64,000 nt of DNA from Euglena gracilis (Eukaryota): contig CP154954.1 of assembly GCA_039621445.1 (NCBI GenBank), positions 46,541,847 to 46,605,846 of the forward strand. Direction: 5' to 3'. The position numbers and the translations under genes were made by a program. This document shows positions 29,114-63,183 of the stretch, in pieces. The notes under the pieces were generated by a model. It worked only from the letters and a program-made list of their open reading frames with translations, did not search any database and was not told the origin of the DNA. The first letter of the stretch is position 1; the number at the start of each line of letters is the position of its first letter.

Positions 29114-32100
29114 GACCATTCGGGCTCCGCACTGCGAGATGGTGAGGTCCTGCTTTCCTTGCCGGCTGTTCTGTTCTGGTGTGTTTGTGCGTGCGCGGGG
29201 GGTGCTTCTTACTGCTTTTTGTTGCCGGAGTTGGCTGATTCCTATTTCTGCCCTTCGACCTCAAGGAGAAAGAACTTTACTTCTACGAACTCAAGTGGAC
29301 GAAAATTCTCGGAACTTCAACTTCCTGACGGAAGAATTCAACTCTCGGAGATCAACAACGGGACTTCCATGAAAAATGAATTTCAAAGAGCTGAAGCTGG
29401 GGAAGGTGGAGACACAGCAGCAGCTGCAGAAGCTGGAGGGGCGGAAGCGACACGTCCGTCCGTGGCCATCGCAACCCCCCCACCACCCAGTACTTCAAAG
29501 ATTTCAAAATTCAAGGTTTCAGGCTCCCCCCCTAAAAATGATGGGCATGGACATGGACAACTGTGGTCAGGAAGAGAAGACAGAGGGGGACCACCATCAC
29601 AGGTCCAACAGACTCCACCCCTTTTTCTCAGTTCCTCCCCTTTCAGGGGAGAAAGCAAAGGCTATGGCAGCCTCAATCCAAAGGATTCAAATCAAAACCA
29701 AGGCTATGGCAGCCATCATTGGACAGGGCCTGGGGCCCAGAATCATGGCTATGGAAGCCATCATCCAAGAGGCAGTGGGCCCAGGAGCAAAGCTATGGCA
29801 GCCTGTGTCCAAACCTGGAAAGCTCCCACGGGGGAAAGGGTATGTCCAACTTACCCCACAGCTCTCTCAAACACAAAACCCTCAGGAGCTGCACATCCAA
29901 GCAACCAACCCTACAGGGGAAGGCCAATGGAGGCCATTATATGCAAGAGGCCAATGGGGGCCAGGGGAAGCATCAAAATATCAAGGCCAATGGAGGCCAT
30001 TATATGCAAAAGGCCAATGGAGGCCAGGAGAAGCATCAAGACTTCAAGGCCAATGGAGGCCATTTCAATCAAAATCAAGTGGCCATTGGAGGCCAGTGCA
30101 TTCAAGATCACATCAGCCCTTGGGGGGGAGGCCCAAGATTGGCTACACCAGGGCCCCCCCAGAAGGTAATCAGCCCACACCCCCCAGCTATATATGTACC
30201 TCCCCATTGCAGACACAGACTTTCCCCAATCTTTCAAAATCAGGGGGAAAGCCTGTCTTTGGACAGCCCTATGGCAGGGCCAGAGGTGACCCCAGTGATG
30301 GGGCAGCCAGGCAGGACCCCAGTGATGGGGCAGCCAGGTGTGACCCCAGTGATGGGGCAGCCAGGGGGAAGGACCCCAGTGATGGGGCCTGTGGAATCCC
30401 CAGACACATTACACCCAGGGGTACCCCCTTACAAGGCCCTGCAGGCCAGCATTCCCCATTGGGTCAAGGCAGGAGCCAGCACAGAGGTATTAAACCTGAT
30501 AAGGGAAGGGGTCAGGGCAGATCTTCCCCTCCCCCCTCAGATGTCCTTAAAAGTTCCCTTCAAAACTCCCCAAGAAATAATGACTGCCCAAAAAATTCTG
30601 AGGGAATACGAATGTGCAGGGGCAACCAGGCAAATCCCCCCAGAGGAAGCAAAACATTTTGTCCCTTATTTTATCATTTCCAAACAGGAAGGGGGAAAGA
30701 CAAAGGAAAGACTAATTTCAGATTGTCGACAGTTAAATCAACATTTCACCCCCCAGAAGTTCAGACTGGAACACATGGGAAACATATTCCCATATCTCAG
30801 AAAGGGTTGGTTCTGTGGAAAAATAGATCTGAAAGATGCTTATTTCCATTTAAAGCTGCACAGCAGCCTGGAAAAGCATGTTTGCATGCAGGTGGGGGGG
30901 GGAAACGTGGCAATTTCAAGCTGCATGCTTTGGGTTAAGCAGCCTGCCACAAAAGTTTATGACTCTCATGAGAGTCTGGGAAAGGAAATGGAGGAAGGAA
31001 GGAAAGGTAGTTTTCATCTACCTGGACGACATTTTGCTGTTAGCCCCCAGCAAAAAGACAGCAGCCCATCATTTGGCAGAAATGAAAAAAGATCTTTTGC
31101 TGGCAGGTTTCAGAATAAACCTCCCCAAATCATGTCTGGAACCAACACAGGAAATAAAGCATTTGGGCCAGTGGATCAATTTGAAAAAAGGCCAACTGGA
31201 AATTCCACAGGAAAAATTAAAATCCCTAAGAAAGGAATTAGGAAAGGTGCTGACAGCACAAAAAATGAGCTGCAGAAAACTCAGCTCTATTGTAGGGCAA
31301 GTCAGAAGCTATTTAGTTTCAATGCCTTTTCTCAGAATTCTGACAGATCAACTTTGCAAAATGGTGGATTTGCACACAAAGTGGGGTTGGGACCACACCC
31401 TAACCATTCCCCAGGGGGTCAAAGATCAAATTGTGGAGTTAAAGGCATTTTTGCAGCCAGGTGTGGGCAGAGCCTTTCAATCCCAGGCCTCTCAAGAACT
31501 GTTCTCAGACAGCAGCACCTGGCAATGGGGGGGGCTGGACAAAAATTCTGGTCAAAAGGTCCAAGATTTCTGGAGGGACCTGCATGTCCTTCACATCAAT
31601 CAAAAAGAATTGATGTCTGCAGTGGAAACTGTAAAGGCTTTGGCAAAACCAAAACAAACCATTGTTCTTCATGTGGACAGCCAGGTGGCAGTAAGTTATT
31701 TAACAAAATGGGGAGGCAAAAAGCCATACCTAAATTCCATCCTAAAACCCCTTCTGTACCATTGCCAAGAAAAGCAAATCAATTTGCAGGTGGTTTGGGT
31801 TCCCACAAAGGAACAATTGGCAGACTCCCTGACCAGGGAGCAAAAAGATCCAGGGGATTACACCCTGAACATGAACATTTTTCACCAGATTCTGAAATTT
31901 TTCAAGCACCACATCACCCCAGAGGTGGACATGTTTTGCACACCCAGCAACAAAAAATTCCCCAAGTTCATTTGTCGATACCCCCACCAAGGGGCCTTGC
32001 TGGTGGATGCCTTGAAGGCAGATTTAAGGGGTCTCCCCCCAGTTTATGCCAACCCTCCCTGGAGCATCATCCCCCAGTGGGTTCAGAGATTGATGCTAAA

Positions 32101-33684
32101 CCCAGACCTGAATTGTCTGTTGATTGTACCCCACTGGGCTTCGACATCATGGTGGCGCCAATTAATGTCAATCAGGCAGCCAGGCAGCAAGGTTTTGCTG
32201 GTACCCCCCAGTGGGGTCTGTTCACCAACTGCTGGGGGGAGGAGATGCCCCCCCCAAGGTGGAATTTGGCCTGCTTGATTGTGTCAGGCAAATATTACAA
32301 TCCCAGGAAGTTTCGATGTCCAGTATCGACACTTACATAAAAAATCTGGGGAATGTCAAAAGATATGATTCAGCATTCAAGGCTTTGATGGGCCAATTGT
32401 TGCACAAAGGGGTGCCCCTGCAGGACTGCACAGTCCACAGGATGGCTGAGGCCATCCTTGACCTGGCTGCCCACAGCCTCAACACTGCAAGAAATGCATA
32501 TGCAGCAGTTTTATTACTCCCAGGGTTTGGGTCATTGAGGTTTTCCCCTCTTTTGTCTCCATTGAAGAGGAAATGGAATTCCAATGTCTGCAAGTATGCC
32601 CATTTTTGGGACCCCACTGATTTCTTGGAGAACATCATCAGGAAATCCAAACCCCTCTCAGACCTATCTGTGAAAGAGCTCAGAAACAGGCTCATCATCT
32701 GTTGGAGGCTGTTGGCCCTCCACAGGGGGGTTGATTTAGCCAGGACACAGCGAAAAATCAGTTTCGTAGGAGAAAAAATTTTCATTTTATTGCAAAGGAA
32801 AGGATGGCAGTGCCCAAGGTGGGAGGAGATTTTGGTTTTGCCACACACCCCCCTCATCAGCCCCTGGCATTTATTGAAAGAGTATGTGGGAAGGACAGCC
32901 CACATGGTTGGGCACAAAAATCATTTGTTGTGGTCTTTGGATGGCAAAAGACCTTTGACTTCAGAAAGGGTGAATTCCCTGACCAAAGAAATTCTGCAGG
33001 AGGGGGGGGTGGACACCACCCACTGGAAACCCCACAGCACCAGAGGGGCTGGGGTTTTATGGTGGAAAAATGCTGGTTTGCAAGTGGAAGAAGTCCAGCA
33101 GCTGGGTCAGTGGAAAAATTTTGGGGCCTTCCAAGCTCATTATTTGAGGCTGGGTGTCGTTTCAAAAATTCAAACAATTATGGCCCAAAGGGGGGTGCAC
33201 AGTACCTCACCATCTCGCAGTGCGGAGCCCGAATGGTCTCGGACTCCCACGACAGAGGAAGGGGGAGGAAGGGACCAAGAGGGCGAAGCACAAGAAGATG
33301 GTGAGCCCAACCCTCCCACCCAAAAAATCAGCAGAAAAAGAAAGACATCCCAACCAGAAAGGGGACCCCCAACCAAGCAACCCCAGCCACCCACCCAGAA
33401 ACACAGAAAGAGACCACCATCCCCATCAGGGGGGGGGGGGCCCACCAAGCGACCATGGGTGAGGGGGGGGGGGGGCGGAGCCACGGCGGTTCAGCTTCGC
33501 CAAGGTGTCGGACGCGGCCTCATCATCGCCAACTCCGGCAACAAAGGCGCAGTAAGAAGCACCCCCCGCGCACGCACAAACACACCAGAACAGAACAGCC
33601 GGCAAGGAAAGCAGGACCTCACCATCTTCTTGTGCTTCGCCCTCTTGGTCACTTCCTCCCCCTTCCTCTGTCGTGGGCGTCCGA
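29114..33684 (+). mobile_element. DIRS1-like tyrosine-recombinase retrotransposon
   Basis: Left ITR 29114-~29230; ICR 33204-33305 complementary to both termini; right ITR plus extension ~33535-33684; RT, RNase H, MT and YR domains. Confidence 0.93.
29563..32340 (+). CDS. DIRS RT / RNase H / N6-adenine methyltransferase-like ORF (two compensating homopolymer frameshifts)
   Basis: RLISDCRQLN, KIDLKDAYFHL, FGLSSLP, YLDD (31019-31030), FSDSS, HINQKEL, VDSQ, ADSLTR, VDMFC, YANPPW (NPPW at 32051-32062); shifts at poly-G ~30894-30902 and poly-C ~32204-32209. Confidence 0.88.
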   Translation: MVRKRRQRGTTITGPTDSTPFSQFLPFQGRKQRLWQPQSKGFKSKPRLWQPSLDRAWGPESWLWKPSSKRQWAQEQSYGSLCPNLESSHGGKGMSNLPHSSLKHKTLRSCTSKQPTLQGKANGGHYMQEANGGQGKHQNIKANGGHYMQKANGGQEKHQDFKANGGHFNQNQVAIGGQCIQDHISPWGGGPRLATPGPPQKVISPHPPAIYVPPHCRHRLSPIFQNQGESLSLDSPMAGPEVTPVMGQPGRTPVMGQPGVTPVMGQPGGRTPVMGPVESPDTLHPGVPPYKALQASIPHWVKAGASTEVLNLIREGVRADLPLPPQMSLKVPFKTPQEIMTAQKILREYECAGATRQIPPEEAKHFVPYFIISKQEGGKTKERLISDCRQLNQHFTPQKFRLEHMGNIFPYLRKGWFCGKIDLKDAYFHLKLHSSLEKHVCMQVGGGNVAISSCMLWVKQPATKVYDSHESLGKEMEEGRKGSFHLPGRHFAVSPQQKDSSPSFGRNEKRSFAGRFQNKPPQIMSGTNTGNKAFGPVDQFEKRPTGNSTGKIKIPKKGIRKGADSTKNELQKTQLYCRASQKLFSFNAFSQNSDRSTLQNGGFAHKVGLGPHPNHSPGGQRSNCGVKGIFAARCGQSLSIPGLSRTVLRQQHLAMGGAGQKFWSKGPRFLEGPACPSHQSKRIDVCSGNCKGFGKTKTNHCSSCGQPGGSKLFNKMGRQKAIPKFHPKTPSVPLPRKANQFAGGLGSHKGTIGRLPDQGAKRSRGLHPEHEHFSPDSEIFQAPHHPRGGHVLHTQQQKIPQVHLSIPPPRGLAGGCLEGRFKGSPPSLCQPSLEHHPPVGSEIDAKPRPELSVDCTPLGFDIMVAPINVNQAARQQGFAGTPQWGLFTNCWGEEMPPPRWNLACLIVSGKYYNPRKFRCPVSTLT

Positions 33685-33697
33685 ACCGCGACCTGTG
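32211..33697 (+). CDS. Tyrosine recombinase
   Basis: LALHRGVD (Arg I), KG, HSTRGAG (HxxR), LGQW, FQAHY (catalytic Tyr). Confidence 0.9.
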
Positions 33698-33828
33698 NNN
33701 NNNNNNNNNNACCCGTTAACCCGTGGACTGGCTGGCCTTTTGAGACTGAGGAGGAGCGTCAACAGTATGAATATGCTGTGACGATCCAACGACAAATCGC
33801 ACGTCGCCCCCCTGTTTCCGCTGGCCAG

Positions 33829-39011: not shown

Positions 39012-42000
39012 GCCCAAATCTGTAAAAAAACAGACCTCATAAGAGGTCGTGCACAGCCTTCCGTAAAGAAAAGAGCTTTAGACCTTTTTTGCGGTAAAGG
39101 CTCGGTTGGGGATTGCCTGAGAGAGCAGGGGTTTAAGGTTGTGTCAGTGGACATAAACCCCAGATTTAACCCAACCCACTGTGCAAATATTTTGGAGTGG
39201 AGATATTGGAGGTACCCCCCCGGATATTTTCAGATCATCGCTGCGGGGGTGCCCTGTACAGAATATAGCTTGGCCAAAACATTGGGAGTCAGAAATTTGG
39301 AGGGGGCAGATCGGCTGGTCAAAAAAACTTTGGAGATTGTCGAATATTTCAAACCAAAGTTGTGGTGGATTGAAAATCCCCGTCATGGACTTTTGCGGAA
39401 AAGACCCTGTGTTCAAAATCTGACTTTTGTCGATGTTGAATATTGTCAGTTTTCAGATTGGGGATATCAAAAGCCCACCCGAATCTGGGGGAGCGAAAAT
39501 CTGAGCAAGCTACAAAACAAACTTTGTGATGGCCAGACCTGCCCGAATTTGATTCCTGGGGGGAGGAGTCACCGAGAAAAGTTGGGAGGATATGGAATGA
39601 CAGTTGGTACTCAGAAAAAATGGAGGATGCCCAAACAACTGGTGGAGTATTTGTTAACCGTGTTGGAACGAAAAAGCGGATATCGTAGGGAGGATTATGC
39701 TGTTAGGAAAGTTTGTATGGAGGAAATTGAGAAGGAATTTCGGGTTAAGGCGGAACGGGATTGTTTTGCAACCAGCCAAAATGCCAGGTGTGAAAAGTTT
39801 TACGGGGAGGATGATGATGCCATGAAAAAGGATTGGGGGGCGGAGGAAACGTTGTGGATGAACCCCCCCTGGACTTTGTGGCCTGAGGTGGCTGAAAAAT
39901 TGCAAAATTCCAATTGTCGGGGAATTTGTATTTGCCCAGACTGGAATAGGAGGTGGGTGAAAAATCTGGTGGCTATGGCTGTCAAAAAGATTTATTTTCC
40001 CAAGGGGACAAAGTTGTTTGAGGCTGATGGGAGGATTTTGAGGGGTACCCGTTGGGGGGTGTGGGCCTTGTTGATCGATAGAAGGCAACCCTCCCAGGGG
40101 GGGGCAGCCCCAGGGAAGAAAAAATTGGTGCGGCTGAAAAAAAGAATGTTGAGGGGGACGAAAACTCGGGGAGGAGCAAAGAAACTCGGGGAGGACAGAC
40201 AACTACTGGTGAAAACCCAGATTAGGTTGGCAAATGGGGAGGAAAAAACGGCCAGAATTTTGATTGACACGGGGGCGGAGGCAAACCTCATTCGACAAGG
40301 GTTGATAGGGGACCACCTAATGTATCCTGCTAAGGACCCGTTAAGGTTTGAAACTGCCAATGGGCAAACTTTGGCGGGGGGGAGCAGATGTGCAAGGGTG
40401 AAAATGATCCTACAACAAAATTGGAATGAGGAAAGGGAAATTGAGTGTGTGGAATATGAGGTTGAATTTTATGAGGCAAACATCAAAGTTGATGCAATTC
40501 TTTCTTATCCATGGTTGGCAGAAGCAAAACTGGGAATTTTTCCACACCACAAGGCGTTGGTGAAAGACAGCCCCGACCTGATTTTTTTGCGGGGTGTTGA
40601 AAGACGGAGGGGTCCGCAAAAATTCAGGGATGACACAAATTTTTCAGTGGACAATGTGACTGTGGCGGACGGGTCTGAGTTTCGGTTGCAAAAACTTGGT
40701 CTTTGTTTGCCATTGGAGGGGTTGGACCAGGAATTACAATTTTTGAGTGATGAGGACCTAGGGGAGGTTGCCACAAATTTGGAGGGAAGTGACCCCCCAG
40801 TGCAAGTTATCAACCGAATGATAATTGCAAGGGAGGGGGAGGACAAAAAAGAGGAGGAACGGGTAGTCAAGTTGAGGGAACAAGTTTTGGAAGATTACAG
40901 GGGGACGGTATTTCGGTCATCGCCATTTCCAGACCCCCCCGAAAGAGGACAATATGGTTATGCATACATACCGTTGAAGGAGGGGGCAAAGCCAACCAGA
41001 CAGAAGCCTTTTTTCATGCACGGTGAGCGGAAAGAGGCACTTGAAAAAATCACACAAGACTGGCTCGACAAAAAATACATTGAGCCAGCCACAGCCAAAA
41101 ATTCAGAATGGCTGTCCCAGACTTTTCCAGTTCCAAAAAAATCCAACGATTTTCCTTGGAGGGGGGTGGTGGACCTCAGGGGCCCAAACAGCCAAACAAG
41201 GCGATGCAACTACCCCCTACCCAAAATTGAAGACATTTTGGTCAAACATGGTGCAAACCAAATGTTTTCGATCATCGATTTGAAGCAAGCTTTTCACCAA
41301 CAACCTTTACACCCAGAAAGTCGACCCATAACGTGTTGTTTTACCCCCAAAGGCATTTTTCAGTGGAGGGTGAACGTAATGGGTTTGACAAATGCCCCCC
41401 AGCAATTTCAGCAAATGATCGATGACCGTTTGACACCAGTAAGGGATATCGCCACAGGGTACATAGACGACATACTGGTGGGGACAACGGTCGGGGAAGG
41501 GGAGGATCTGGTGGGGGCACATGAAAAAGATTTGAGGAGGGTGTTGGAGGTGCTGAAAACAGAACTTTTGGTGGCTGATGAATTCAAAGCCAAACTTTTT
41601 GTGGAGGAGGTTGAATTTTGTGGACAAATTTTAGGAAACGGGACTAGGAGGCCTGCACCGGGTAAGTTACGAGCGATCGAAAAGTGGGAGGTTCCAAAAA
41701 CAATTACGGCTTTGAGAGCCTTTTTGGGATTCACAAATTATTACAATGCATACATTCACATGTATGCGGAAGTAGCTGCCCGATTGCAAGACAAATTGAA
41801 AGTCCCCAGGGAGGTGGGAAAGAAAGGAAGTCGAAAACCTGTGGAATTTGATGGGGAGGATTTAAAAGCTTTTGAGGAGCTGAAAAAAAGGTTGTGTTCG
41901 GGCCTAATGTTGCAACGGGTAGACCCAGATAAACCCTTTGTGCTAAGGGTTGATGCCAGTGGGTACGCCGTGGGGGCAACGTTAGAGCAAATGAAGGAGG

Positions 42001-44689: not shown

Positions 44690-45062
44690 AATATCCCCCC
44701 GGCCCGAGGAGGGGGGGGGGGCGCTTGATTTTTTAAAAAATCCCCCCGGCCCGAAGAGAGAGGGGGGGGGGGGGCGTTTAAAAATCCCCCCGGCCCGAGG
44801 AGGGGGGGGGGCGCTCGATTTTTTTTGACAAATATCCCCCCGGCCCGAGGAGGGGGGGGGGGCGCTTGAATTTTGGACAAGAATCCCCCCGGCCCGAGGA
44901 GGGGGGGGGGGGGCTTGACGAATTTAAACCAAAAATCCCCCCGACCCGAGGGGGGGGGGCGCCAACCGAATTTTTACCAAAAATCCCCCGACCCGTTGGA
45001 AAGGGGGGGGGCAAATCTTCGTGAAGACCCTCATACCACCCGTGAGAAACGGGGGGGGGGGC
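44690..45062 (+). repeat. ~55-60-bp tandem repeats in the 3' UTR (aaatccccccggcccgaggagggggggg)
   Basis: Six to seven degenerate C-run/G-run units. Confidence 0.75.
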
Positions 45063-45283
45063 AGCCAAATATTCATTGGTTGGTGAACCGAGTCTTTCCC
45101 AAAGGCTTGAAGGCACTTGAAAGCCAAAGTCCCTGAATTTTATTTCCCGTTTGGTTGGTTCAAGGGAGCATGTGTGGGACATAGGCTTTGGGTGAGGAGT
45201 GCCGATTGGAGGAGTTCCCCCCTCTTTGTTGAGGGGGGGGGGGGGGAGTTTTTGGTGTCCGACTAAGGTCGCAAGGGAGGGGG

Positions 45284-46126
45284 TGTCGGCCGCCGGCTTT
45301 CGCCGGCAGCCAAAAATTGCCAGAAAGCGCAAATTTCAAAGTCGCGGGTAACATCCAACCAGTTAAAAAAACCCGCGACTTAAATTGGAAGCGGGTCAAA
45401 TTAGTTTGCGCTTTCGAATTCTGTTTTTTCACAGAACTTGAGGGGTTTTCCCCAATATTTGGCAAGAAGGAATACTATTGTATTGAATTTGTCAATTGGA
45501 CTTTGATTTGGAGTGGCAAGTTGAATTTCATTGTTGGTCATTGATCTATTGAAGTCATTGTCTTGAAGGAGCCTTTAACACCACCACCCACTCCTCTATA
45601 CCACCGCCTTCGCCTCCATCACCTACCACTCCTTGCCCCAAGGTTTGCACATTTCATACATTCACATTCCACAGTTTCAGTTTCAAGTGTCTTCTCATTC
45701 AAGTTTTGGAGTTTCAGAATTCAAGTTTCTTTCAGATTTGACTTCAAAGTTCCAAGGTTCAGTGGGTTGGTTTTTGCCAACAAGGTGTGCGAGAGAGAGA
45801 GAGAGGAGAAAAGTGAGATTTGAGAGAGAAAAGTTCGATTTCATTTCAAATGGCAGATTTTTCGTTTTTCACTAAAATTTCGGAAAACTTTGAAAAAACG
45901 ATCCTACGCGCCGGCTGGGGTTGGGGAAATCACCTGGGTGAAAAAATGGGGGTTGGCTTGAGCCCACCAATTCCCCGAGAAAGCGCAGGCCCCACCCCGG
46001 AAACACCCACCCCCCTGCTGTCGGTGGTTATCCACGACGGCGAGGACCCCCCCGGGCCCTCGGCCCACCGGGACTCGCCGGTCGCGGGGGCGACCGGCGG
46101 CGCACAGGGGGTGGGGCCGGCGAACA
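45284..46126 (+). repeat. 3' LTR
   Basis: Preceded by the PPT and followed by CCAG. Confidence 0.95.
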
Positions 46127-46349
46127 CCAGGGATACCCTGCCCGGGCGGAAATGACACGGGAAGAGCGGCAGCAGTATGATGCTGCTGTGTCGGCTCTCA
46201 CAGGAGTCCCAGCTTCATCACGATCGAGTCAACCAGCGTGACAGCAGGACGTTGCTGTGGCGGAAGCGCCTCCAGCACGGCCCACAAGCTCTGCCGCCGG
46301 CAAGCGTGACCGCGGCCCGGAAAATCTGACGCCGCAGCCACAGCACCGC

Positions 46350-46779
46350 TGTGTACCAGGCACGTCCCAGCTCTGTAGGATATCTGCAGAGTGGGTTCTG
46401 TGACGGTCGCACCACTGTGGAAACCCACAGCTGGTAAGATCGTGGCAGACCCTTCTGGGATCTGCCCCTGGACACGTCAGCACTTTTCTCTCCTTCCCCC
46501 ACAGGTGGTATTCTTTACTCTCACAATCTCCAAGTTTTCACCATTGGTTTTTGCAGAGGGAAAAACCCTCAGAACAATCGAACTTTGATCTCAGAAGAAA
46601 CTTCTGAATCTTTGCTTTGTGCTTTGCTTCTTGGGGAATTGGGAAGAAAAGGGGAAAACCACTTTTCGTTACTCCAAAGACTTTTCCCTACCATAAGTAG
46701 GCTGCGCACCAAGGCGAAAGCGAAAGGCTTTTACAGAAAGTTCCAAAAAGGGGAAAAGGGAAAGCTTTGGACGTACACT
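46350..46779 (+). repeat. 5' LTR
   Basis: Homologous to 62757-63183 with multiple substitutions. Confidence 0.9.
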
Positions 46780-47065
46780 TGGTAGCAGAATAGGTCAAAG
46801 ATCCTACAGAAAGAAAGGCTACCAGGTAATACACTTGGTAGCAGATTTAGGCAACGAACCTACACAGACGTTCCACACAGAGAAACTCTGTGGTTGACTG
46901 GTGGTGAGGATCGTACTGAGCCGTGAAACACGGTGAAAGTACTGTTCCTGGCCCCTAGCCAACCTTTAAGCAAGGATACAGGTCTCAGAAGGCTCTGTTC
47001 GGTAATCGCCGATACAACCTTTCTGGTCCCTGTTTCTCTGCTTATTTGTGTGAATTTTTGGGTTT

Positions 47066-50000
47066 TTGCCTTTTTACCCATCTCAAAAGATGCAGAGCAC
47101 AAGCCCCAACCCCAAATTTGATTATGACTTGTTGATGAGTTCATTGAGCAATTGTGATGAAGATTGCGGGGATTGGAACGGTTTGAATGAAACAAGTTCC
47201 AATTCCCGACCCCCCAAGCAAGAAGAAGGCAATTTGACTCATTTGTCATTGTCAAAAGGCGAAACGCCTTCATTATTGCATGGGGGTAATGAACCCTCTT
47301 CATCATCATTGTCATTGATTGTGCGGGATGTAGGTGGCAAAATGCCTTCCTCCATCCCGATTCACCCATCATTGATGCGGCGAGGGGATGAACCCCTTGA
47401 GATCTCACATTTGCTTACTCATGTTACCCATGAACAAAGTGAGGGGTATTTGCCCTTTGCTCTGTTCACACCCAAAAGATCCCCGGTGGAAGCACCGGTG
47501 GGCCTTTTGGAGTGCAACTCGGTGGAAACACCGTGTTTTTTCCAACCCCCCCCTCAATTACCACCCCCCACACCATTTCACGCTTTGCCGGGATTACCCG
47601 CGGAAGCTGCGGTTTTCCCTGCATTGCCATGGAACCCAGATATGCGTCTGGTGGTGCCGGAAATCTCTGGTGCCGTTTCCATTGTGGAGGACTATGAGGA
47701 AGATTTGAGGGATAACCTCACCCCCGGTGATGTTTACCGAATTCTCGGTCAACTCCCAGCGGATCACCCGCTTAGCAAGCAAATTTTGCATGTCCACCAA
47801 TGCGTTGCGGAATGCGCAACCATGCTCAACAAAGTTTTGCAGTTCGATGAGGACAATCAAAGGGTTGTCAACACCAAACTGGAATGTTGCTGGAATTATT
47901 TGCAGGAAATCGGCAAATATTGCCAACACAATTTTGAAAATGCGGGGAAAGACCTTCAGCATTTTCGAGAAAGTGTTGACAGTATTTTGCGCATCCAACT
48001 TCCACAAAATTTCCAACAAATCAGCGAAATGCTGCATGAAGCGGAAACGCGGAATGATTCCAAGTTTCTGCATGTGCAGGATGGTATGAGCCATCTTTTT
48101 GCCCAATTGGAATCCTGTTCAACCATGTTACTGCAATTGCAGCAGCAGTTACAAGCGCAAAATGCCACCCCCAAAATGCCGGAAATCGGTAACTTTGTCG
48201 CGGTTGAGCATTTTGCCGCACTTACCACTTCTTTCCAAGAAGCCCAACAACGGATTTTGCATCTTGGCTCGGAAATCGAGCACTTGAAGCAATTTCAGGC
48301 GAAAGTGCAAGAAAATTTTGTTCCCCGTACGCAAATCCAGCTTTTGGAGGAACGAATTTCACACTTGGAGCAAAAATCCTGCCATTGTGCCGCAAATCAG
48401 GATGGATTAACCACCTTGAACGCGAAAATCGCGGATTGCGCACAACGGTTGGATTTTACGCAACAACAAATGCAAACGGACATTGGCGGTATTAATGCCA
48501 CCGTTGTCGGTTTGCAGGAGCATGTTTCTGCACTTTCCAAGCGAATTCCCGACATTAGTGGTATTCAAGCCGCTATTGGGGAATTACAAACCCGTTGCAC
48601 CTTGTTGTCCACCACAGTGACGGAAATCCGCTCACTACCCCCCATTTCGCGTGCTCGGATATCCGAGTCACCGGAATTTCGCTCATTTTATGACAAAGTG
48701 CTTGGTGACAACAAGGAAACCTTGCAAGCATTTTGTACAAGTTTGCTCCAAATTGAGGAAAGCGTGAATCGGAATGCCCGATCCATGCAAGATGAGGTTT
48801 CTCGGTTGGATGGACGAATTTCTGCTTGTTTGAAAAACCAAACACAGAAAATTCGCGAACCACCATGGAAACCCCCACCAAATCACACCACAATTTGCAA
48901 ACCGTCTCCAATGCGGTGAAAGCGCTTGCGGGTCAACTCCGGAATGTGGAGGAGTCCCAAGGAAATCTTGCCCAAGAATTATACTTGGTTTCTGAAAAGA
49001 TGCCACACTTGGAAGATTTTTCCCGTTACCGCAAACGCATTAGGCATTTGGAGACTGAGGTTGTCCGTATTTGCGGCCAACTCCAGTTGGTGGAACATTT
49101 GGAAGAAACGGTGCATGACTTGTCCGCGAGTTTGGATAAAATGTCCACTCCGGTATCGGTTGTGCCACCATCCACCGCGGTAAGCGCTGCGGTTGGTATT
49201 CCAAATGTCCGGGAATCGCGTTCTCAAATTACCATTTCCGGAGTAGGAATCCCTACATCCACCGCGAATTTGGTACAACCACCCGCGAAAACGCGAATTG
49301 TACCACCTTTGCATTTGCCAACACCACAAACTCACTCTTCGCACGACATTTCCGATGAGGAAATTGACCCCCCACTCGAAAATTCGAGTCTCCACCAAGA
49401 AATTCAACATTCCAACCTTGTACGAGGAATGAGCCAACACCCCACACCTGGTATTGGTCATGTGTCGCATTCGCGATCATACCAACCACCAACGGGTTCT
49501 GGATTACCGAATCACCCATCGGGTTTTCGGCGGGAAACCCGCCCCACTGAGAGGATTTCACCACATTTTTCGCAATTAAATCCTGCCAACCTTACACTTG
49601 GTGCGGGAAATCCTGCACGGGTTACACATGGAGCGGAAAATCCGCGAAACGCGTTTGGTGTTAAGAATTACCCTGACCCAAACCCCTGGAATACCACCGA
49701 GGGTCAGCGGGTTACTCAGAGAGACTTCAAGGGCACCATCGCAATCGCGAACAAGGTGAAGCCCCAATGGGACGGGGATCCAACCACATGGAGACAATTT
49801 TTTCGGGACTGGGAGTACTATTGGGCACTAAAGGGACCCACCCAAGACCCGAATCCCGAGGTAGTCAAGATGGAATTCATCGATTGCCTACCGAGGGAGG
49901 AGCGAGAACGCGCACGCAATTTGGTGATACGTAATGGCGTATCATTCGATGACCTGGTTGAGCAATACGCTTCAACCAACTCAAGTTTGGTCACCAGGAT

Positions 50001-51158
50001 TACCCTGGAGAAGAAGTGGCGACAAAGCGCGCCATCGGATCGCAAATGGAAATCCATTGACCTTTGGTATGCCAAATGGTTAGCACTTGCTTCCGAAGTT
50101 GATGAACTTAGCGAGAAGCAAATGCGCGAACAATTCGATGCGGTTTTGTTGCATTTCACACCATCCCTCGTGAAGGATATCCATCGCGAGGAGTTGGCAG
50201 GGCATGAGATGACTCTTGCCCAACGTTGGAATTATGTGTCAAAGCAACTCAAGCTCACACAAGTTTTGGGACAAATACAGTCCGCTTTCCAAACGCATCC
50301 CACCGCGGGAATCCCTGCGGGTGCGGTTAATGCATTGCAAAAATCACCCATGTCACCAAGATCACCCACCACGGGACCGAAAACGCGGAATCAGCGTTCT
50401 TCGGACCAGGGCACGGATAAACTGTGCTTTTTGTGCAACAAATCTGGTCACATGTCTCGGGAATGCCCGAATCCCGATGCGCGAAAGCGTATTGGAAGCC
50501 CAAGGGGCTCGACCTCCTCACGGGGATCGGGTTCCTCGGCGTTTTCACGTCAATCGGGATTTTCACGTTCTTCGGAGAACCGCTTTAGCGGTAGTAGGCC
50601 CAAGTCACCATCGCGTGATGGTCGGGAAACCCGTCCTTCTCGCGGTCGGTCACCTGGACCCCCTGCCCGAAAACGGGATTTCAATCGCGATTCTTCACGA
50701 TCTCGTTCGCGAAGTGAATCATCCTCTACGCGGGAGTCACCGAAGAAACCCAAGTCCACCGGTCATGGTCGACGGGAAACCCGTTCACCACGACGGTTTG
50801 ACGGTCGAACGGAATACCGTTCCCCCCGTTATGCGGAATCCCGCCACAAATCCCGTTGTTCACTTTGCGGTTCCAAAGATCACCACGCATCCAAATGTCC
50901 CAGATCTCGTTTTCCCCCCGGCCCGGCTACGGAAATCGCGGTAAGCGCCGCGATGACCGTGGTTACTCCTCCAACCGGCAAAAGGTCGGTTTCAAGATAT
51001 CTTGTTTGGAGGAGGACACCCCGGCTTCGGGCAGGGAGGGGGATGAGACCTCGGACGGGGAATTTAATGAGGCCCGAATGGCGGTGCGCTCATTAAATTC
51101 CATCTATTCCACCAAAAAGTCCGTTGCCGGCTATGCGGCCGGTTCGGACTTGGAGTAG
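47066..51158 (+). CDS. Gag (coiled-coil N-terminus, capsid-like domain, two CCHC zinc knuckles; two frameshifts)
   Basis: PQWDGDPTTWRQFFRDW; CFLCNKSGHMSREC; CSLCGSKDHHASKC; shifts near 48840 and 50915; ends at TAG 51156-51158. Confidence 0.85.
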
Positions 51159-51203
51159 GGGAGCCCGAGGTCCGAGGGCACGGACCTCTGGGCTGATGAA
51201 CAG

Positions 51204-54200
51204 ATGGAGGTAAGACCTGATCAACCTTACCCCCCCTGCCCATCCGCCTTCACGGTCAGTACCCGGAATTATTTCGGGTCCCCTACCCCCCACTCCACAT
51301 TTCCGCTCGGAATGCTGAGCAAAGTAGGAAAGGGTTCATGGGAGAGCTGGCATGCAAACGTATTTCCGCCAGACCCTTCACTTTGCGTACCACCAATGGA
51401 ATTACTCGTCCAAGCGGAAATCCGCATTCAAAATTTCTCCACCAAAGTCAAAATTCTCATTGACACTGGTTGTCGCATTGCACTGCTCTTTCGGTTGGGG
51501 TTGATACCGACCCCGCTCTTGGTAAGCGCCAAGAAACCGATCAAAATTACAACCGCGGATAACACCCCCATGTGTGGTGGTGATTTGGGATGTGTGCTCG
51601 AGATACTCTTGCCCATCATTCCGAAGCATCACTCACAACCCACACAAATACAACATTTCACCAATATTTGGGGTTACGAGTCCGGAATTCACGGGTCTGA
51701 CGTAATTTTAGGATACCCATTTTTACGCCAGTACCGATTGGTTGTGGATTGCCACTCCCACGGTTTGCGCACAGCACCCACCACTCCATTGACACCCAAA
51801 CCACCATCACCGTTGGCATCCGCCATGATGACCACCACTTTTCCAACACCGTTACCCACAATGGCAACACCGTTATCCACCACACCAACAACCGTTTTCC
51901 ACACCCGGGGTACGGAGAAAGCCTCCCCCCTGCCCAATGACACACCAACATGCGTTCCACATGAGGCAGGGCAAGCGAGTAGCGGTACCCCCGCGGTTTC
52001 ACTGGGTTACAAGACGAAAGCCCAAAGGCCTGAAGATATATCGGTGTCGAGTAGTCGCCCAGCTACACCACCACTTCGTTTCCTACCAGTTGTGCCGAAT
52101 CCAGGCACACCTGTACAAGACTCACCGGCTAATGCCATCGACACCCACTTACACGCACACCTGTCACACCATCACACTTCCTTCCAATGTGTGCACTGCA
52201 GGAGAATTTCCACCCAATCGGATTTCGATTGTGGATGTTTAGTTCAAAATCCGACACTAATCGCAATTCCGAAAACGGAATCCACACCCCGAGATACACT
52301 TGGTTGTAGCCCGCAATGCGCGGAGATACACCGAGTACTCCAGCAACGCGGATTAGCCTCGTTGTTTGGAAACGCGAAAAGCGCCACTCCTAATTACAAT
52401 CGCGATCACACTTGGTACGGATTTGATGCGGAATGGGGAAACCCCCAACTTGTCCAAACTCCCTTGGGATTAACCCTTGAGGTAGTGGAAGACAACCCGC
52501 ATGTTTGTGGATCCATTCATTGTGTTTCTTCTCTTCAACCCGAAAATCGGGTGCATGAATACGCGAAACGCGTATGGAATGCTTTCAATTTTGGTCAATA
52601 TCGCATTTTGGAACGATGGTTTTCCAAAATCGCGACATTGGCTGATTCTTTTGATTTGGCATTGGAAATCGATGCCTTCTCATCCAATGCACATGCCCGT
52701 TTGCCACGTCATTGGTCACAACACTCCAACGCATTTGATAAATTTTGGGGTGATACGGTGTTATGGATGCACCCTCCCCCAAAACTTATCGAATGTGCGG
52801 TTGAGAAAATTCTGCGGGATGAAGCCCGTGGAGTTATTCTCATACCCATCATTCCGGAAGCGGAATGGTTCACCCAACTATCGTATGTATGTTTTCATTG
52901 GTGGGATTTACCCACTAATGTACCGATTTTTGAGGATTTTTGTGGTAAAATATTACCACCCTTGCAAGAAATCATTTTTCGCGTATGTTTCTTCGATGCA
53001 TTCGGAATGTCCGAATTCGCGGTACCGAGGAAGCTCGGTAGCCCCAGGGATACCCTGGCGGTTTCCGCAGTCATCGAGAGTGCAGGTCAGCATCCTAAGT
53101 CAGCCGAATTCTGTTCGCGGATTACCCGCGAATTCCACGGTGTGCTGGAAAATCCAGTATACGCGTGTGACATCGACCCCGCGATACGCGGTCCGTTCGG
53201 TGTTTGTAAGATCGAGCTTAAGGATGGAGCCAAACCAATGCACCGGAAATTTTTTCGTTGTTCGGGAGAACGCGAACAAGCTCTCAATGAAATGATTGAG
53301 AAGCTTATTCAGCGCAAGTGGATTGTACCCTCGAAAAGCGAGTGGACATCCCAGGCATTTGTTGTTCCTAAACCCCCAGACCCCTCAGGTCAGAAGAAAT
53401 GGAGGCTGGTGCTGGATTACCGGTACCTGAACTCCCAAACAAGGGATGATCCCTTCCCGCTCCCCCTGATCGAGGATTTGATCACCAAACAATCGGAAAA
53501 CCGGTTGTGGTCAATTTTCGATCTGGAGGACGGTTTTCACCAAATGCACTTACACCCTGACTCCCAACCATACACGGCATTCGTGACATCCAAGGGTGTG
53601 TACCAATGGACGGTACTCCCCATGGGTGTTAAGAATGGCCCAGCCATGTTTCAGCGCATGATACAATGGGTTCTACGCGATTTACCGTTTGCCATTGTGT
53701 ACATTGATGATGTGCTGGTGGGAACACCACCACCATCCGCAAAATCGAGCGAGGATATCCTCGTCACACACTTCCACCATGTTTGCGCGGTATTAACCGC
53801 TTTTCAAAAACATGTGCTTTTCGCGAAAGGCGCGAAAATGCATTTGTTTCGGATACTTATAAAATTTTGCGGTCACATCCTCAGCAATGGACAGCGGAAA
53901 GCCGCTCCGAGTAAACTCGAAGCCATTAAGAAATGGACCCCTGAGGTAATCAAAACGATTACTCACCTCAAAGGATTTTTGGGATTAGCCCAATACTACG
54001 CGATTTATATGAAGGACTTCGCGAAAATCGCGGTGCCCCTCACCAAACAGCTCAAAAACCGGGCTGTTGACAACACCAAAGTCATTTGGGATGCCCAAAT
54101 GCGCGAGGCCCTTGAGAAAATCAAGGTTTTGCTTTTGGAGAATGTTGTCCTCGAAATCGCGGACCCGTACAAACCATACGTGTTGGAAGTCGACAGCAGC

Positions 54201-56255
54201 GATTACGCTGTTGGCGGAGTTCTTAGCCAGCATAATGCGGCGAATGAGCTCCGACCTGTGGCTTTCTTCAGCAGAAAGTTACAGGGCGACGATGGAAAAG
54301 GTCAAGTCAAATGGAGTATACGCGAGAAGGAAACCTACGCAATCGTGCTTATACTCCAGAAATTCCGAAGCTGGGTAGCCAGCAGCCTCGTCCAGATCCT
54401 CGTCAAGACCGACCATGAGAGTCTCCAACACTGGTACACCGAGGATTTGAACAAGGCCATGTCATCGGTCGGAAGGCGATGCAGATGGCATGAGTTCTTG
54501 AGTCAATTCAACCTTGTGGTTATCTATACCCCTGGTCACACACAAAAAGTAGCGGATCCGCTCAGTCGGGCCCCTTGGTATTACCCTGGGAACCCGGATG
54601 AGGGAGACGCGACTTTTCATGGAAGTCAGGAAGCTGACGACTACGCACGTCGAAACGACGCTGCGGATAATCTTTTGGATTCTTTTCCCGTTTCACAACT
54701 ATTCCTGGTCGCACCAGTGCGAGGAAGGCGTCGACGTGGAAGCACGTCCGGGCCCCGGCGTATTACGCGCACGGAGTCCCCTTCCCCACTGTTCTTTCGC
54801 GAATGGGATTATAGTCGTGACCCGGTGTATGACACCATTGTCACCAGACTTCGTAATGGCGAAGTGCTGGACAATTACACTCTTTCACCTTTACGGTTGG
54901 TTTTTCGCAATGAATCGGGTTACAAATATTGTATCCCCCAGGACCTGGTTGATGATGTGATTTTGTGCTATCACAACCATGGTCACCCTGGGGCCCCCAA
55001 ACTTCTTTCGTTGGTGGGCCGCAGGTACTGTACAACCCTGAGCGAGAAAGAGCTTTACTCACGCTGTTTTCGAATAGCGCAACGGTGTCAAATTTGTCAA
55101 GCGGTAAAACCCCGCAGAGGTACCCCCCCTGGTACGATGGACTTTTTCCCTGTGCCCCCTGACATTTTTACATCCCTCTGCATGGATTTTCTGGAATTGG
55201 AACCGTGCAAAGGAACAGACGACAAAATTTACGATTACGTTTTTGTTGTCGTCTGCAGGCTGAGTGGGTACATTGTAGCCATTCCATGCCAGAAGTCAGG
55301 GTTGACTGCCCAAAGTTTGGCAGCTATATTTTTGGAGAAATGCATTTGCTTGATGGGTTTACCGAATGAAATCGTGAGTGATCAAGACCATTTGATTTCT
55401 TCAAGGGTTTTCACCACGTTGTGCAGTTTACTCGGAATCGAGCAACATTTTTCCATTATATACCGACCCAAAGGCAATGGTAGAGCCGAGGCAGCCGTGA
55501 AATCCGTCGTGAATATGCTTCTCTTTTCACTGGCTGACTCGCTCAACTGGATATCAGTTCTACCATGGTCTTTGTTTTATATCAATACCCTACCAGGGTT
55601 GGTTTTACCTCACTCCCCCTATAAATTAGTTTTCGGACGGGACCCTCCGGCCATAGGGGATGTCCCTTCGGAGAGACCCGCCCGAACGAGTGTCAGTTGC
55701 GAGACCTGGTTTGCGGAAGTAGAAAATCTACGTTCTGCAGTCCAGAAGCGCGTGACTGATATTCATGCAGCAAAACGGAAAACGTTTTTGCAGAATTTCA
55801 AGTCACCTGTTTACAATCCCGGTGACCGCGTGTGGGTACGGAATAGCCGTACTCGCATGCAGTCTTCCAAGCTGGACCCCCTCTGGCTCGGCCCCTGTGA
55901 AATCCTAGAAAGACTAGGTACCAGCGGGCGTTACAAGGTTGCATTACCGAATGGTGTTGAGGACGTTCATATGGACGACTTCAAGCCATACCTGTCGCCA
56001 CCGGATGGGAAACCCATCCCGTGTTTGCACTTCAAACCCCGTTCCAGATTACCTGAGACGGACGACTTTGTAGTCGATAAAATTATCGATCACAAAATCG
56101 ACAAAGGTATGCACCTTTGGAAGGTCCGATGGAAAGGGTATGGGCCCGAGGAGGACACTTGGGAGCCAGCAACCAGTTTTGTTGGGTATGTCCAGCAAGA
56201 TTGGAAGCTGTGGAACAAGAAGCATAACATTGATGTTTCCATGACAAACTTTTGA
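51204..56255 (+). CDS. Pol polyprotein: protease - amino-MTase-like - RT - RNase H - integrase - chromodomain
   Basis: LIDTGC; EIDAFSS..LWMHPPP; WRLVLDYRYLN; YIDD; VDSSD..EKE; SDQD..GRAE; FVVDKII..VRWKGY..TWEP. Confidence 0.95.
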   Translation: MEVRPDQPYPPCPSAFTVSTRNYFGSPTPHSTFPLGMLSKVGKGSWESWHANVFPPDPSLCVPPMELLVQAEIRIQNFSTKVKILIDTGCRIALLFRLGLIPTPLLVSAKKPIKITTADNTPMCGGDLGCVLEILLPIIPKHHSQPTQIQHFTNIWGYESGIHGSDVILGYPFLRQYRLVVDCHSHGLRTAPTTPLTPKPPSPLASAMMTTTFPTPLPTMATPLSTTPTTVFHTRGTEKASPLPNDTPTCVPHEAGQASSGTPAVSLGYKTKAQRPEDISVSSSRPATPPLRFLPVVPNPGTPVQDSPANAIDTHLHAHLSHHHTSFQCVHCRRISTQSDFDCGCLVQNPTLIAIPKTESTPRDTLGCSPQCAEIHRVLQQRGLASLFGNAKSATPNYNRDHTWYGFDAEWGNPQLVQTPLGLTLEVVEDNPHVCGSIHCVSSLQPENRVHEYAKRVWNAFNFGQYRILERWFSKIATLADSFDLALEIDAFSSNAHARLPRHWSQHSNAFDKFWGDTVLWMHPPPKLIECAVEKILRDEARGVILIPIIPEAEWFTQLSYVCFHWWDLPTNVPIFEDFCGKILPPLQEIIFRVCFFDAFGMSEFAVPRKLGSPRDTLAVSAVIESAGQHPKSAEFCSRITREFHGVLENPVYACDIDPAIRGPFGVCKIELKDGAKPMHRKFFRCSGEREQALNEMIEKLIQRKWIVPSKSEWTSQAFVVPKPPDPSGQKKWRLVLDYRYLNSQTRDDPFPLPLIEDLITKQSENRLWSIFDLEDGFHQMHLHPDSQPYTAFVTSKGVYQWTVLPMGVKNGPAMFQRMIQWVLRDLPFAIVYIDDVLVGTPPPSAKSSEDILVTHFHHVCAVLTAFQKHVLFAKGAKMHLFRILIKFCGHILSNGQRKAAPSKLEAIKKWTPEVIKTITHLKGFLGLAQYYAIYMKDFAKIAVPLTKQLKNRAVDNTKVIWDAQMREALEKIKVLLLENVVLEIADPYKPYVLEVDSSDYAVGGVLSQHNAANELRPVAFFSRKLQGDDGKGQVKWSIREKETYAIVLILQKFRSWVASSLVQILVKTDHESLQHWYTEDLNKAMSSVGRRCRWHEFLSQFNLVVIYTPGHTQKVADPLSRAPWYYPGNPDEGDATFHGSQEADDYARRNDAADNLLDSFPVSQLFLVAPVRGRRRRGSTSGPRRITRTESPSPLFFREWDYSRDPVYDTIVTRLRNGEVLDNYTLSPLRLVFRNESGYKYCIPQDLVDDVILCYHNHGHPGAPKLLSLVGRRYCTTLSEKELYSRCFRIAQRCQICQAVKPRRGTPPGTMDFFPVPPDIFTSLCMDFLELEPCKGTDDKIYDYVFVVVCRLSGYIVAIPCQKSGLTAQSLAAIFLEKCICLMGLPNEIVSDQDHLISSRVFTTLCSLLGIEQHFSIIYRPKGNGRAEAAVKSVVNMLLFSLADSLNWISVLPWSLFYINTLPGLVLPHSPYKLVFGRDPPAIGDVPSERPARTSVSCETWFAEVENLRSAVQKRVTDIHAAKRKTFLQNFKSPVYNPGDRVWVRNSRTRMQSSKLDPLWLGPCEILERLGTSGRYKVALPNGVEDVHMDDFKPYLSPPDGKPIPCLHFKPRSRLPETDDFVVDKIIDHKIDKGMHLWKVRWKGYGPEEDTWEPATSFVGYVQQDWKLWNKKHNIDVSMTNF

Positions 56256-56427
56256 GGATACATGGGAAACGCATGTTGTTTTCGTTTGGTGTTTCTATCA
56301 TTGAGTATTATAATTTTTTCTTTACACAAGAGTTTTGTTTGCCAACCAATACCCAAACCAGGGAGATACCCTTTCACTTGACAACAAACCACCCACACAA
56401 TGTACCGTACCGACCCCGGGCGGTATC

Positions 56428-61862: not shown

Positions 61863-62756
61863 TGCCGAAACGGCATTACCAAGCCCATGTAAGGTAAGCG
61901 CCTTCATGGAGCTCATACACTATATATATACACTGGAAGCGGAAATCGCTAAACTGCCCTGGGATGAACCTGGGTCTGTGTCCCTCAGCGCTCTGGATGG
62001 AAGCATCCAGGAGCCCCCCCCTCCCCCCTGCCGACCCATTATACCAGTGACCATGCGGACGGAAACCGTCTGCGGGAGGTAATCGCCTCTTATTGCGTCG
62101 TGAAGGAGCTACTGCTGTGAAGAACTTGGCAGCCGGGAAACCTGGCAAGCCGCTAAGTGACGCACAGCACACAGCGCGCACGCCGTAATAATAGGCCAAC
62201 TTGTCACTTTTCGGCCCTAAGGCACTTAAGGCTGCCAGACAGCAAAAATTCTGTTCTGGCCTAAGCCAGCCCCCCTCTCCTCCCTACTTTCCCCCCACCC
62301 CCGCAAAGCTGTCGCCGGCAGTCGGTTTTGTAAGTAGGCTTTTGTTTCCTAGTGCGGATATGACCGCCTAGGACCCTTATCCGGGTATGACCAGGATAAG
62401 CGCCTGCCCCCCCCTTCCACACCTCTCCCTTGGGTTTTCAGCAAATCGCTTGACCAACCCCGCGTGCCTTTGGCACACCCAAACTGGGTGGATGGGCCAC
62501 TTTGTCAGGAAACCTGCCAAGCCCCGTTTCCCACAGTGGGCTTTTTCACACCCCACCTAAGCCGAAACGGCTAATAGGTAACCGCGAAACGCGGCTAACC
62601 TTTTGCGCGTTTTTGGGCTTTGGGTGGATGCCACTGTGTGGAAAGGAGAGACACCGAATGTAGAAGTGAACCCCACCTGGGGCAGCGTCAGATATCCTGA
62701 CTGGACTGGGAAACCCTGGTCCATGAAGGAAATCGGGCGTAGCCCTGGGAGGGGGA

Positions 62757-63183
62757 TGTGTACCAGGCACGTCCCAGCTCTGTAGGATATCTGCAGAGTG
62801 GGTTCTGTGACGGTCGCACCACTGTGAAACCCACAGCTGGTAAGATCGTGGCAGACCCTTCTGGGATCTGCCCCTGGACACGTCAGCACTTTTCTCTCCT
62901 TCCCCCACAGGTGGTATTCTTTACTGTCATCAATTCCAAGTTTCACCATTGGTTTTGTCAGAGGGAAAAACCCTCGGAACAATCAAGACTGAACTCAGAA
63001 GAAACTTCTGAGACATTGCTTTGTGCTTTGCTCCTTGGGGAAGTGGGAATCAAAGGGGGAAAACCACTTTTGTTACTCCAGAGACTTTTCCCTACCATAA
63101 GTAGGCCGCGTACCGAGGTGAAAGCGCAAGGCTTTTTCAGAAAGTTCCAAAAAGGGAAAAAGGGAAAGCTTTGGACGTACAGT
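62757..63183 (+). repeat. 3' LTR
   Basis: Follows the PPT; followed by accgc. Confidence 0.9.

Follow-up and report, generated by a model that had tools for sequence, protein, structure and literature searches.

A predicted methyltransferase-fold domain with histidine at motif IV in a chromovirus of Euglena gracilis

The window analysed here is a stretch of 64,000 nucleotides of the Euglena gracilis genome (contig CP154954.1), and it holds three retroelements that carry a Dam-like methyltransferase (MTase) domain: a DIRS-like element and two elements with long terminal repeats (LTRs), termed element 2 and element 3. Element 3 is a 16.8-kb Ty3/gypsy chromovirus (46350-63181), and in its pol frame the asparagine that opens motif IV of the MTase domain is replaced by histidine, so that the motif reads HPPP where it aligns to the NPPW of element 2. 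Comparison with relatives indicates that this histidine is family-wide and recurrent, and that it is not confined to the element 3 copy. The domain is probably a constrained but non-catalytic, or re-purposed, module and not a conventional N6-adenine methyltransferase. The pol of element 3 would thus carry a compact domain with the class-I MTase fold, belonging to the Dam (PF05869)/PCIF1-like lineage that is elsewhere known from DIRS elements. In this domain the motif-IV asparagine has given way to histidine, the aromatic fourth residue has been lost and two tryptophans have gone, whilst the core appears to have been retained under constraint. Such a domain would most likely bind the RNA or cDNA of the element, S-adenosylmethionine (SAM) or a host factor, and may do so either as a binding module released from Pol or as one acting within Pol.

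Homology, predicted fold and position of the domain

The limits of the domain were set by its phmmer relatives, which align to residues 28-183 of the translation of 52470-53100. A preliminary description of this DNA had quoted a peptide that is indeed the frame-1 translation of 52560-53010, lying in an uninterrupted frame of 1698 codons, and had read it as amino-MTase-like; a profile search of this segment does show MTase similarity, and the relatives and the structural model described below agree with that reading. The Pfam Dam family matches residues 494-573 of the pol of element 3 with an E-value of 0.0019 (18.4 bits) when the whole frame is searched, and with E 5.5e-5 (23.3 bits, below the gathering cut-off of 28.1 bits) when 150 residues are searched in isolation. 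The homology holds transitively, because phmmer ties the domain to proteins that exceed the Pfam cut-off (P0025, P0021 and P0119, at 39.7, 37.9 and 49.2 bits, respectively). Among 1.84 billion representative proteins, phmmer found 340 with an E-value of 1e-3 or lower, of which 95 reached 1e-10 and 10 reached 1e-30, and a word-indexed protein search gave one match (P0002) among 320 candidates.

Within the window, exactly three Dam-like places were found by tblastn of the three domains. The alignment by eye that had been proposed for them stands for element 2, whose domain (39612-40110) matches that of element 3 at BLASTP E 8e-11 with 28% identity, LWMHPPP lying over LWMNPPW, and is weak for the DIRS-like element (E 0.052 only); the two NPPW domains match one another at E 3e-11. 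Chance similarity was considered and dropped, given the match to element 2 and the phmmer relatives. Scans of metagenome contigs with the domain and with the family alignment gave 99 and 116 pattern matches, respectively, and no confirmed relative. Sequence searches of the PDB returned a chance antibody match (E 1.5) for the single domain and no chain at E<=1 for the family profile, and in the ESM Atlas the matches were to unnamed eukaryotic clusters only, one of which has PF05869 in 11% of its members.

The domain is predicted to have a class-I Rossmann-like methyltransferase fold. An AlphaFold2 model, built on a 71-row alignment, reached a predicted local distance difference test score (pLDDT) of 92.4 and a predicted template-modelling score of 0.85, and it puts the histidine (His81 of the model) right after strand 77-80, where motif IV sits. 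Foldseek gave six PDB matches at E<=1e-3, all of them PCIF1 chains (best 6irw_B, E 6.4e-5, query TM-score 0.55). With VIA-align the top chain was again PCIF1 (6irx_A, Z 10.7, root-mean-square deviation 3.0 over 130 residues), tied with PH1948 (Z 10.0) and followed by METTL5 (Z 8.8), T4 Dam (Z 8.0) and E. coli Dam (Z 7.8); 14 chains reach Z>=8, and among those listed all are methyltransferases or methyltransferase-like.

As the preliminary description had it, the three retroelements hold the domain in three polyprotein positions: after reverse transcriptase (RT) and RNase H (RH) in the DIRS-like element, before the protease (PR) in element 2, and between PR and RT in element 3. The PR region of element 3 is identified by its similarity to that of element 2 (BLASTP E 2e-14) and by its DTG motif, alongside a weak Pfam match to Peptidase_A3 (E 0.013). 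When 20 long relatives from metagenome assemblies were scanned with Pfam, a Dam-like region was found N-terminal of RT in nine; Pfam sees both Dam and RVT_1 in seven of these, and P0154 and P0022 carry the Dam-like region by phmmer only. The remaining 11 comprise one with the order RT, RH, Dam, integrase (INT) (P0119), one that is copia-like (P0117) and nine fragments. Because the same layout recurs in nine of the 20, the PR-Dam-RT order is taken to be older than the element 3 copy. The order in P0117 is integrase, Dam, RVT_2, and the text of a recent preprint on Dam-carrying elements (Fernandez-Moreno et al. 2026, bioRxiv 10.64898/2026.05.21.726589) mentions no copia-type element with a Dam-like domain.

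Histidine at motif IV among the relatives

In active amino-methyltransferases motif IV reads (D/N/S)-P-P-(Y/F/W). Element 3 differs from this pattern at both the first and the fourth residue, its histidine being encoded by CAC at 52770-52772. The change from asparagine to histidine takes one base, and the nearest Asn-bearing relative (P0003, reading NPPI) groups with element 3, both of which would fit a mutation or sequencing error in one copy of a family that normally reads NPP(F/W). This explanation, which the preliminary description had entertained as a copy-specific mutation, is scarcely credible once the other relatives are considered. P0002 reads HPPL and is 72% identical to element 3 without a gap over 156/156 aligned domain residues, and P0154, a full chromovirus pol of 1677 amino acids that shares the layout and is 81% identical in RT, reads HPMF; further His-bearing relatives are P0014 (HPPP), P0118 (HPPQ) and P0011 (HPMF). 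In sequencing run X15 a diverged contig reads Leu-Trp-Met-His-Pro-Pro with a different histidine codon, CAT, and no change at 52770-52772 was found among the 40 best-supported of 244 variant places in the runs.

The relatives examined numbered 151 (P0002 and 150 listed of the phmmer matches), of which 138 cover the motif. The first motif residue in these 138 is asparagine in 90, histidine in 31, cysteine in 10 and another residue in seven, and His-Pro-Pro is retained in 24 of the 31 His-bearers.

A maximum-likelihood tree built quickly from 100 domain rows, with supports from the Shimodaira–Hasegawa-like approximate likelihood ratio test (SH-aLRT), joins element 3 to P0002 (SH-aLRT 99) and then to P0003 (96), within a 15-row clade (98) that comprises nine rows with asparagine, five with histidine and one with tyrosine. 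Histidine is found in every row of a separate 13-row clade (SH-aLRT 96), and the domains of element 2 and the DIRS-like element sit in a different major clade, in which 22 of 23 rows have asparagine. The best tree implies six changes involving histidine, and supported branches force at least four when the motif columns are kept; when these columns are dropped, the supported branches still force at least two changes to or from histidine, and the best tree again gives six. On the basis of this tree and of the relatives, the histidine is considered a lineage trait that has arisen or reverted more than once, and not a lesion of one copy. That the module was repeatedly captured or shuffled within its present host, as the preliminary description suggested, is no more than a possibility: the layout predates the copy, the element 3 domain lies in a separate major clade from the other two, and any transfer may have taken place in this host or in another.

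A second non-canonical motif-IV lineage was also observed, in which Cys-Pro-Pro-Phe replaces Asn-Pro-Pro-Phe and the aromatic residue is kept (a 7-row clade, SH-aLRT 95); Cys-type relatives include P0020, P0027, P0033, P0035, P0045 and P0141.

Loss of active-site residues and probable constraint on the domain

The histidine is accompanied by other differences around the predicted active site. The fourth motif residue is aromatic in 68 of the 90 Asn-bearers, in 9 of the 10 Cys-bearers and in 7 of the 31 His-bearers, and in the family of element 3 it is proline, leucine or glutamine instead. Tryptophans at model positions 108 and 148 are found in 82% and 62% of the Asn rows, respectively, and are not the commonest residue in the His rows. 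The core is kept: Asp48, Phe50, Trp73, Lys93, Gly101, Pro106 and Trp113 are retained at 81-100% in the His rows, Trp79 and the Pro-Pro pair also stay, and the Asp-x-Phe of strand beta1 is present in element 3 and in 81-86% of His rows.

Comparison along pol points to constraint on the domain. Identity with P0002 is 72% and gap-free over the domain, 44% with gaps over the linker upstream of it and 84% over RT; the domain also aligns with that of P0154 without a gap, at 44% identity. The pol stretch was found wholly or partly in 20 of 24 listed sequencing runs, and run X1 alone gave 11,444 contig pieces over 1.1 kb, so the element 3 family is highly repeated. These depths are contig figures and not measures of expression, and contigs over the domain in RNA-labelled runs are not proof of transcription. 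The 40 variant places covered are distributed as 23 in the 297-nt linker (17 non-synonymous), seven in the 468-nt domain (three non-synonymous) and 10 in the 376 nt after the domain (one non-synonymous), which lends weak support to constraint on the domain.

These data bear on the possibility that the domain is a decaying, functionless relic carried along in pol. It is more poorly conserved than any other folded domain of pol, its catalytic motif is degenerate, and the element 3 copy is not young, its LTRs being 93% identical. A relic is nonetheless very unlikely, given a frame that stays open across all of its codons, gap-free alignment to both relatives next to a linker that is gapped, the conservation of core residues in the His-bearers, the confident structural model and the recurrence of the same layout in the long relatives.

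That the domain is still an active MTase, with histidine serving motif IV as hydrogen-bond acceptor or as base and possibly with a changed substrate (such as the RNA of the element, its cap-adjacent adenosine or the RNA:DNA intermediate), is doubtful, although several points speak for it. Most His-bearers keep His-Pro-Pro, the 13 diverged representatives of the all-His clade point to selection for histidine, Asp-x-Phe and most core residues persist, and the model comes closest in structure to an RNA N6-adenosine methyltransferase. Against this, the base-stacking aromatic residue is gone from element 3 and from 24 of the 31 His-bearers, the two tryptophans of the Asn-bearers are lost as well, and no characterised amino-methyltransferase with histidine at the first position of motif IV is known to us, although no literature search aimed at one was made. 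Even Asn-type domains from transposable elements have yielded no N6-methyladenine (6mA) in a bacterial host, as eukaryotic DAM domains expressed in E. coli lacking Dam gave no gain of 6mA (Fernandez-Moreno et al. 2026).

A related and quite unlikely possibility is that the His-Pro-Pro and Cys-Pro-Pro-Phe lineages are selected, repeatedly arising switches of the catalytic residue in PCIF1/Dam-like domains of retrotransposons. Such switches would mark either a catalytic motif of a new kind acting on a new substrate, such as the capped RNA of the element or the RNA:DNA intermediate, or a PCIF1-mimicking pseudo-enzyme that engages the transcription or 6mA machinery of the host. If true, it would split the DAM-carrying LTR retrotransposons ('DAM-LTRs') into functionally different classes.

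Several points weigh against the preferred interpretation, that of a constrained module which has probably lost catalysis or been re-purposed. Histidine is able to accept a hydrogen bond and might replace asparagine, and the retained Asp-x-Phe and Pro-Pro are compatible with retained SAM binding and catalysis. The text of the preprint argues that the DAM domains of transposable elements keep their catalytic pocket and reports that DAM-LTR insertions are enriched in 6mA (Fernandez-Moreno et al. 2026), which also speaks for an active enzyme. A phylogenetically controlled test for correlated loss of asparagine and the aromatic residues found two independent pairs only on supported branches and so had no power. 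The domain is less conserved than its neighbours in pol (72% against 84-90% for RT, RH and INT in P0002, and 44% against 81-82% in P0154), which also fits weak constraint. Many of the relatives are short metagenome gene calls that may include decayed copies, so that the counts of residues other than asparagine may be inflated, and a minority of Asn-reading copies is possible in the runs, where 40 of the 244 variant places were covered.

Organisation of element 3 and its neighbours

The features of the three elements are collected in Table 1. Element 3 has the pol order of a chromovirus, PR-RT-RH-INT with a C-terminal chromodomain, together with direct TG...CA LTRs and a target-site duplication of about 5 bp, two bases being ambiguous at the 3' junction. 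Its LTRs are 93.0% identical over 430 aligned columns, with 23 mismatches and seven gaps. The stretch that resembles a primer-binding site (PBS) is similar to the one that follows the 5' LTR of element 2. Pfam further finds an SH3 match between the integrase core and the chromodomain.

Table 1. Coordinates of the features of element 3 and of the Dam-like domains of its neighbours, numbered from the first position of the window (aa, amino acid position in pol)
Feature	Position	Strand	Evidence or remark
Dam-like domain of the DIRS-like element, NPPW	31787..32263	+	Pfam Dam E 8e-4; tblastn
Element 2	33828-46126	+	LTRs 33828-34671 and 45283-46126
Dam-like domain of element 2, NPPW	39717..40040	+	Pfam Dam E 5.8e-10, 39.5 bits, above cut-off; tblastn
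5' LTR of element 3	46350..46777	+	TG...CA ends; direct repeat of 62757-63181
PBS-like TGG... stretch	46780..46796	+	Just 3' of the 5' LTR; read from sequence
First frame, putative, coiled-coil-like	47054..48919	+	Weak coiled-coil Pfam matches only
gag-like frame with CCHC zinc knuckle	48796..51096	+	zf-CCHC E 1.6e-6, 28.4 bits, above cut-off
pol frame, 1698 codons, no stop	51159..56255	+	PR, Dam-like, RT, RNase H, INT, chromodomain
Aspartic protease region	51390..51767	+	DTG at 51456-51473 within LIDTGC, aa 100-105
Cys motif (CxxC, about 11 residues, CxC)	52185..52256	+	Upstream of the Dam-like domain; common to P0002 and P0004
Dam/PCIF1-like methyltransferase-fold domain, about 155 residues	52551..53018 (about)	+	phmmer, Pfam Dam, AlphaFold model
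HPPP replacing motif IV NPP(F/W/Y)	52770..52781, aa 538-541	+	Aligned to NPPW of element 2
RT (RVT_1)	53367..53879, aa 737-907	+	Pfam E 3.7e-24
RNase H	54087..54509, aa 977-1117	+	Pfam RT_RNaseH E 1.1e-22, RT_RNaseH_2 E 4.4e-23
Integrase, H2C2 zinc domain and rve core	54933..55469, aa 1259-1437	+	Pfam E 8.7e-6 and 6.9e-10
Chromodomain	56067..56174, aa 1637-1672	+	Pfam Chromo E 7.2e-10
Large extra frame, 1542 codons	57234..61862	+	Between pol and the 3' LTR; no Pfam family
Putative polypurine tract	62747..62756	+	Abuts the 3' LTR; read from sequence
3' LTR of element 3	62757..63181	+	Repeat and BLAST analysis

The pol frame is open from 50802 but for a single TAG at 51156-51158, and it overlaps the gag-like frame by 295 nt (50802-51096); expression of gag-pol from element 3 would need both a frameshift and read-through, or else the stop is a nonsense change in this copy. 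The P0154 gene call (1677 aa) is about as long as the element 3 frame after the TAG. P0002 and P0004 share the Cys motif that precedes the Dam-like domain, even though the linker around it is not conserved, and the motif may bind zinc as an appendage of the domain. The large frame between pol and the 3' LTR, noted together with 56314-57369, is rich in proline, alanine and Lys-Gly repeats, and its C-terminal part is rich in cysteine; this family of chromoviruses may thereby possess a third gene. An opposite-strand gene was considered for the domain and dropped, as no reverse-strand frame of at least 80 codons overlaps 52390-53099, and a forward-strand frame that overlaps the domain (52486-53295) is regarded as a chance open frame. 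Rfam at gathering thresholds gave no match in the window.

The insertion of element 3 is a nested self-insertion: it lies in the corresponding region of a different copy from the same family. The flanks of elements 2 and 3 (33711-33828, 46127-46349 and 63182-64000) are 86-96% identical to DNA within element 3 (57299-58460), from which it follows that both elements inserted into one and the same further copy of the element 3 family. Indeed the large frame of element 3 includes an uninterrupted paralog of both insertion sites, and the flanks of element 3 join in this paralog at 57596-57660. The outer copy is interrupted by an assembly gap of 13 N at 33698-33710.

Element 2 is a very young chromovirus, with LTRs 99.88% identical across 844 nt and a 4-bp target duplication. 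According to Pfam, its pol comprises, in order, a stretch like a C5 DNA methyltransferase (DNMT), Dam, PR, RT, RH, INT and chromodomain; the DNMT-like stretch is short and N-terminal, and its match is just under the cut-off (E 5e-4). An imperfect tandem repeat of seven units, about 47-52 nt long, occupies 44659-45010 just upstream of the 3' LTR of element 2; each unit combines a run of G, a core rich in A and T, and a run of C. The preliminary description had called the two gypsy families unrelated, which goes too far: judged from their sequences, with 43% identity in RT-RH and 29% in integrase, elements 2 and 3 are different families, both of them chromoviruses. In the DIRS-like element (29111-33719) Pfam gives the order RT (RVT_1), RNase_H, Dam and then, in the next frame, a tyrosine recombinase (E 4.6e-5). 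Its coding sequence is split among the overlapping frames 29373-30938, 29542-32340, 30854-32278 and 32166-33719, and this copy probably carries frameshifts.

Comparison with known systems

Pseudo-methyltransferases of the METTL14 type keep the MTase fold, have a proposed binding or scaffold role, and belong to the circularly permuted MT-A70 clade. Their active-site motifs have been described as disrupted (Iyer, Zhang and Aravind 2016, PMC4738411). By analogy only, the domain of element 3 may be compared with them, as the fold is kept and motif IV is degenerate, although it belongs to a different clade.

The cap-specific mRNA adenosine N6-methyltransferase PCIF1/CAPAM (6irw, 6irx) is the best solved-structure match to the element 3 model, with 12-13% sequence identity and a TM-score of 0.55-0.59 of the query. 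The motif of PCIF1 is NPPF and is not retained in element 3, and Pfam finds neither the WW nor the helical domain of PCIF1 in the pol of element 3; a faint PCIF1_WW match falls on the DIRS domain of the window (E 0.085). Placement in the PCIF1 clade is to be read with the structural ranking in mind, in which PCIF1 comes first but is tied in Z-score with PH1948 (10.7 vs 10.0), and no PDB match is made by sequence.

The DIRS1-type methyltransferase domain was reportedly described by Poulter and Goodwin in 2005. In the text of Iyer, Zhang and Aravind (2016) the DIRS1 MTase was put in the PCIF1 clade and thought likely to be inactive, and it was suggested that it binds the element transcript or mimics PCIF1, and is possibly directed at RNA or Pol II. 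Element 3 shares this domain lineage, and both its predicted fold and the preferred reading of a probably non-catalytic module agree with these proposals. DIRS elements differ from it in having a tyrosine recombinase and the domain after RT/RNase H, whereas element 3 has an integrase and LTRs and holds the domain before RT; moreover, the DIRS copy in the window keeps NPPW, unlike the HPPP of element 3.

The class to which element 3 belongs has already been described. DAM-LTR retrotransposons, and 'EpiLTRs' that combine DNMT, DAM and a chromodomain, were reported by Fernandez-Moreno et al. (2026), whose text describes DAM-carrying LTR elements in five lineages with repeated transfer from DIRS elements, DNMT+DAM+chromodomain elements in Euglena gracilis and Cymbomonas, and mixed DIRS/LTR clades and nested insertions in Euglena gracilis. 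The position of the DAM domain is stated in that text for one clade only, between RT and integrase. Element 3 carries a DAM domain within a non-DIRS LTR retrotransposon, and it resembles the DAM-LTRs in being Ty3/gypsy-like (these are often chromoviruses), in the PF05869-type domain within pol and in its relation to DIRS elements; element 2 resembles the EpiLTRs, with its DNMT-like stretch N-terminal. The difference lies in motif IV, which is Asn-Pro-Pro in almost all sampled DAMs according to the preprint (Fernandez-Moreno et al. 2026) and His-Pro-Pro in element 3 and relatives. The main text of the preprint mentions neither the His-type nor the Cys-type lineage, the words 'histidine' and 'inactive' occurring zero times each in it, and the His-type lineage with its eroded pocket is thus a variant absent from that main text.

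Two views of such domains are therefore available. In the model proposed in the preprint, LTR elements acquired a DIRS-type adenine MTase, with which they write 6mA on themselves and so stay transcribed, whilst the earlier view held the domain to be PCIF1-derived and inactive. The family of element 3, with the fold, Pro-Pro and core but without the asparagine, adjoins an Asn-type family in the same genome and offers a natural test of both. Should His-type elements prove to be without 6mA enrichment, the methylation model would gain support; if they are enriched, the domain would have to act without classical catalysis, for example through recruitment. Beyond this natural test, element 3 is unremarkable within a class already described, and its histidine marks a variant of that class and not a discovery.

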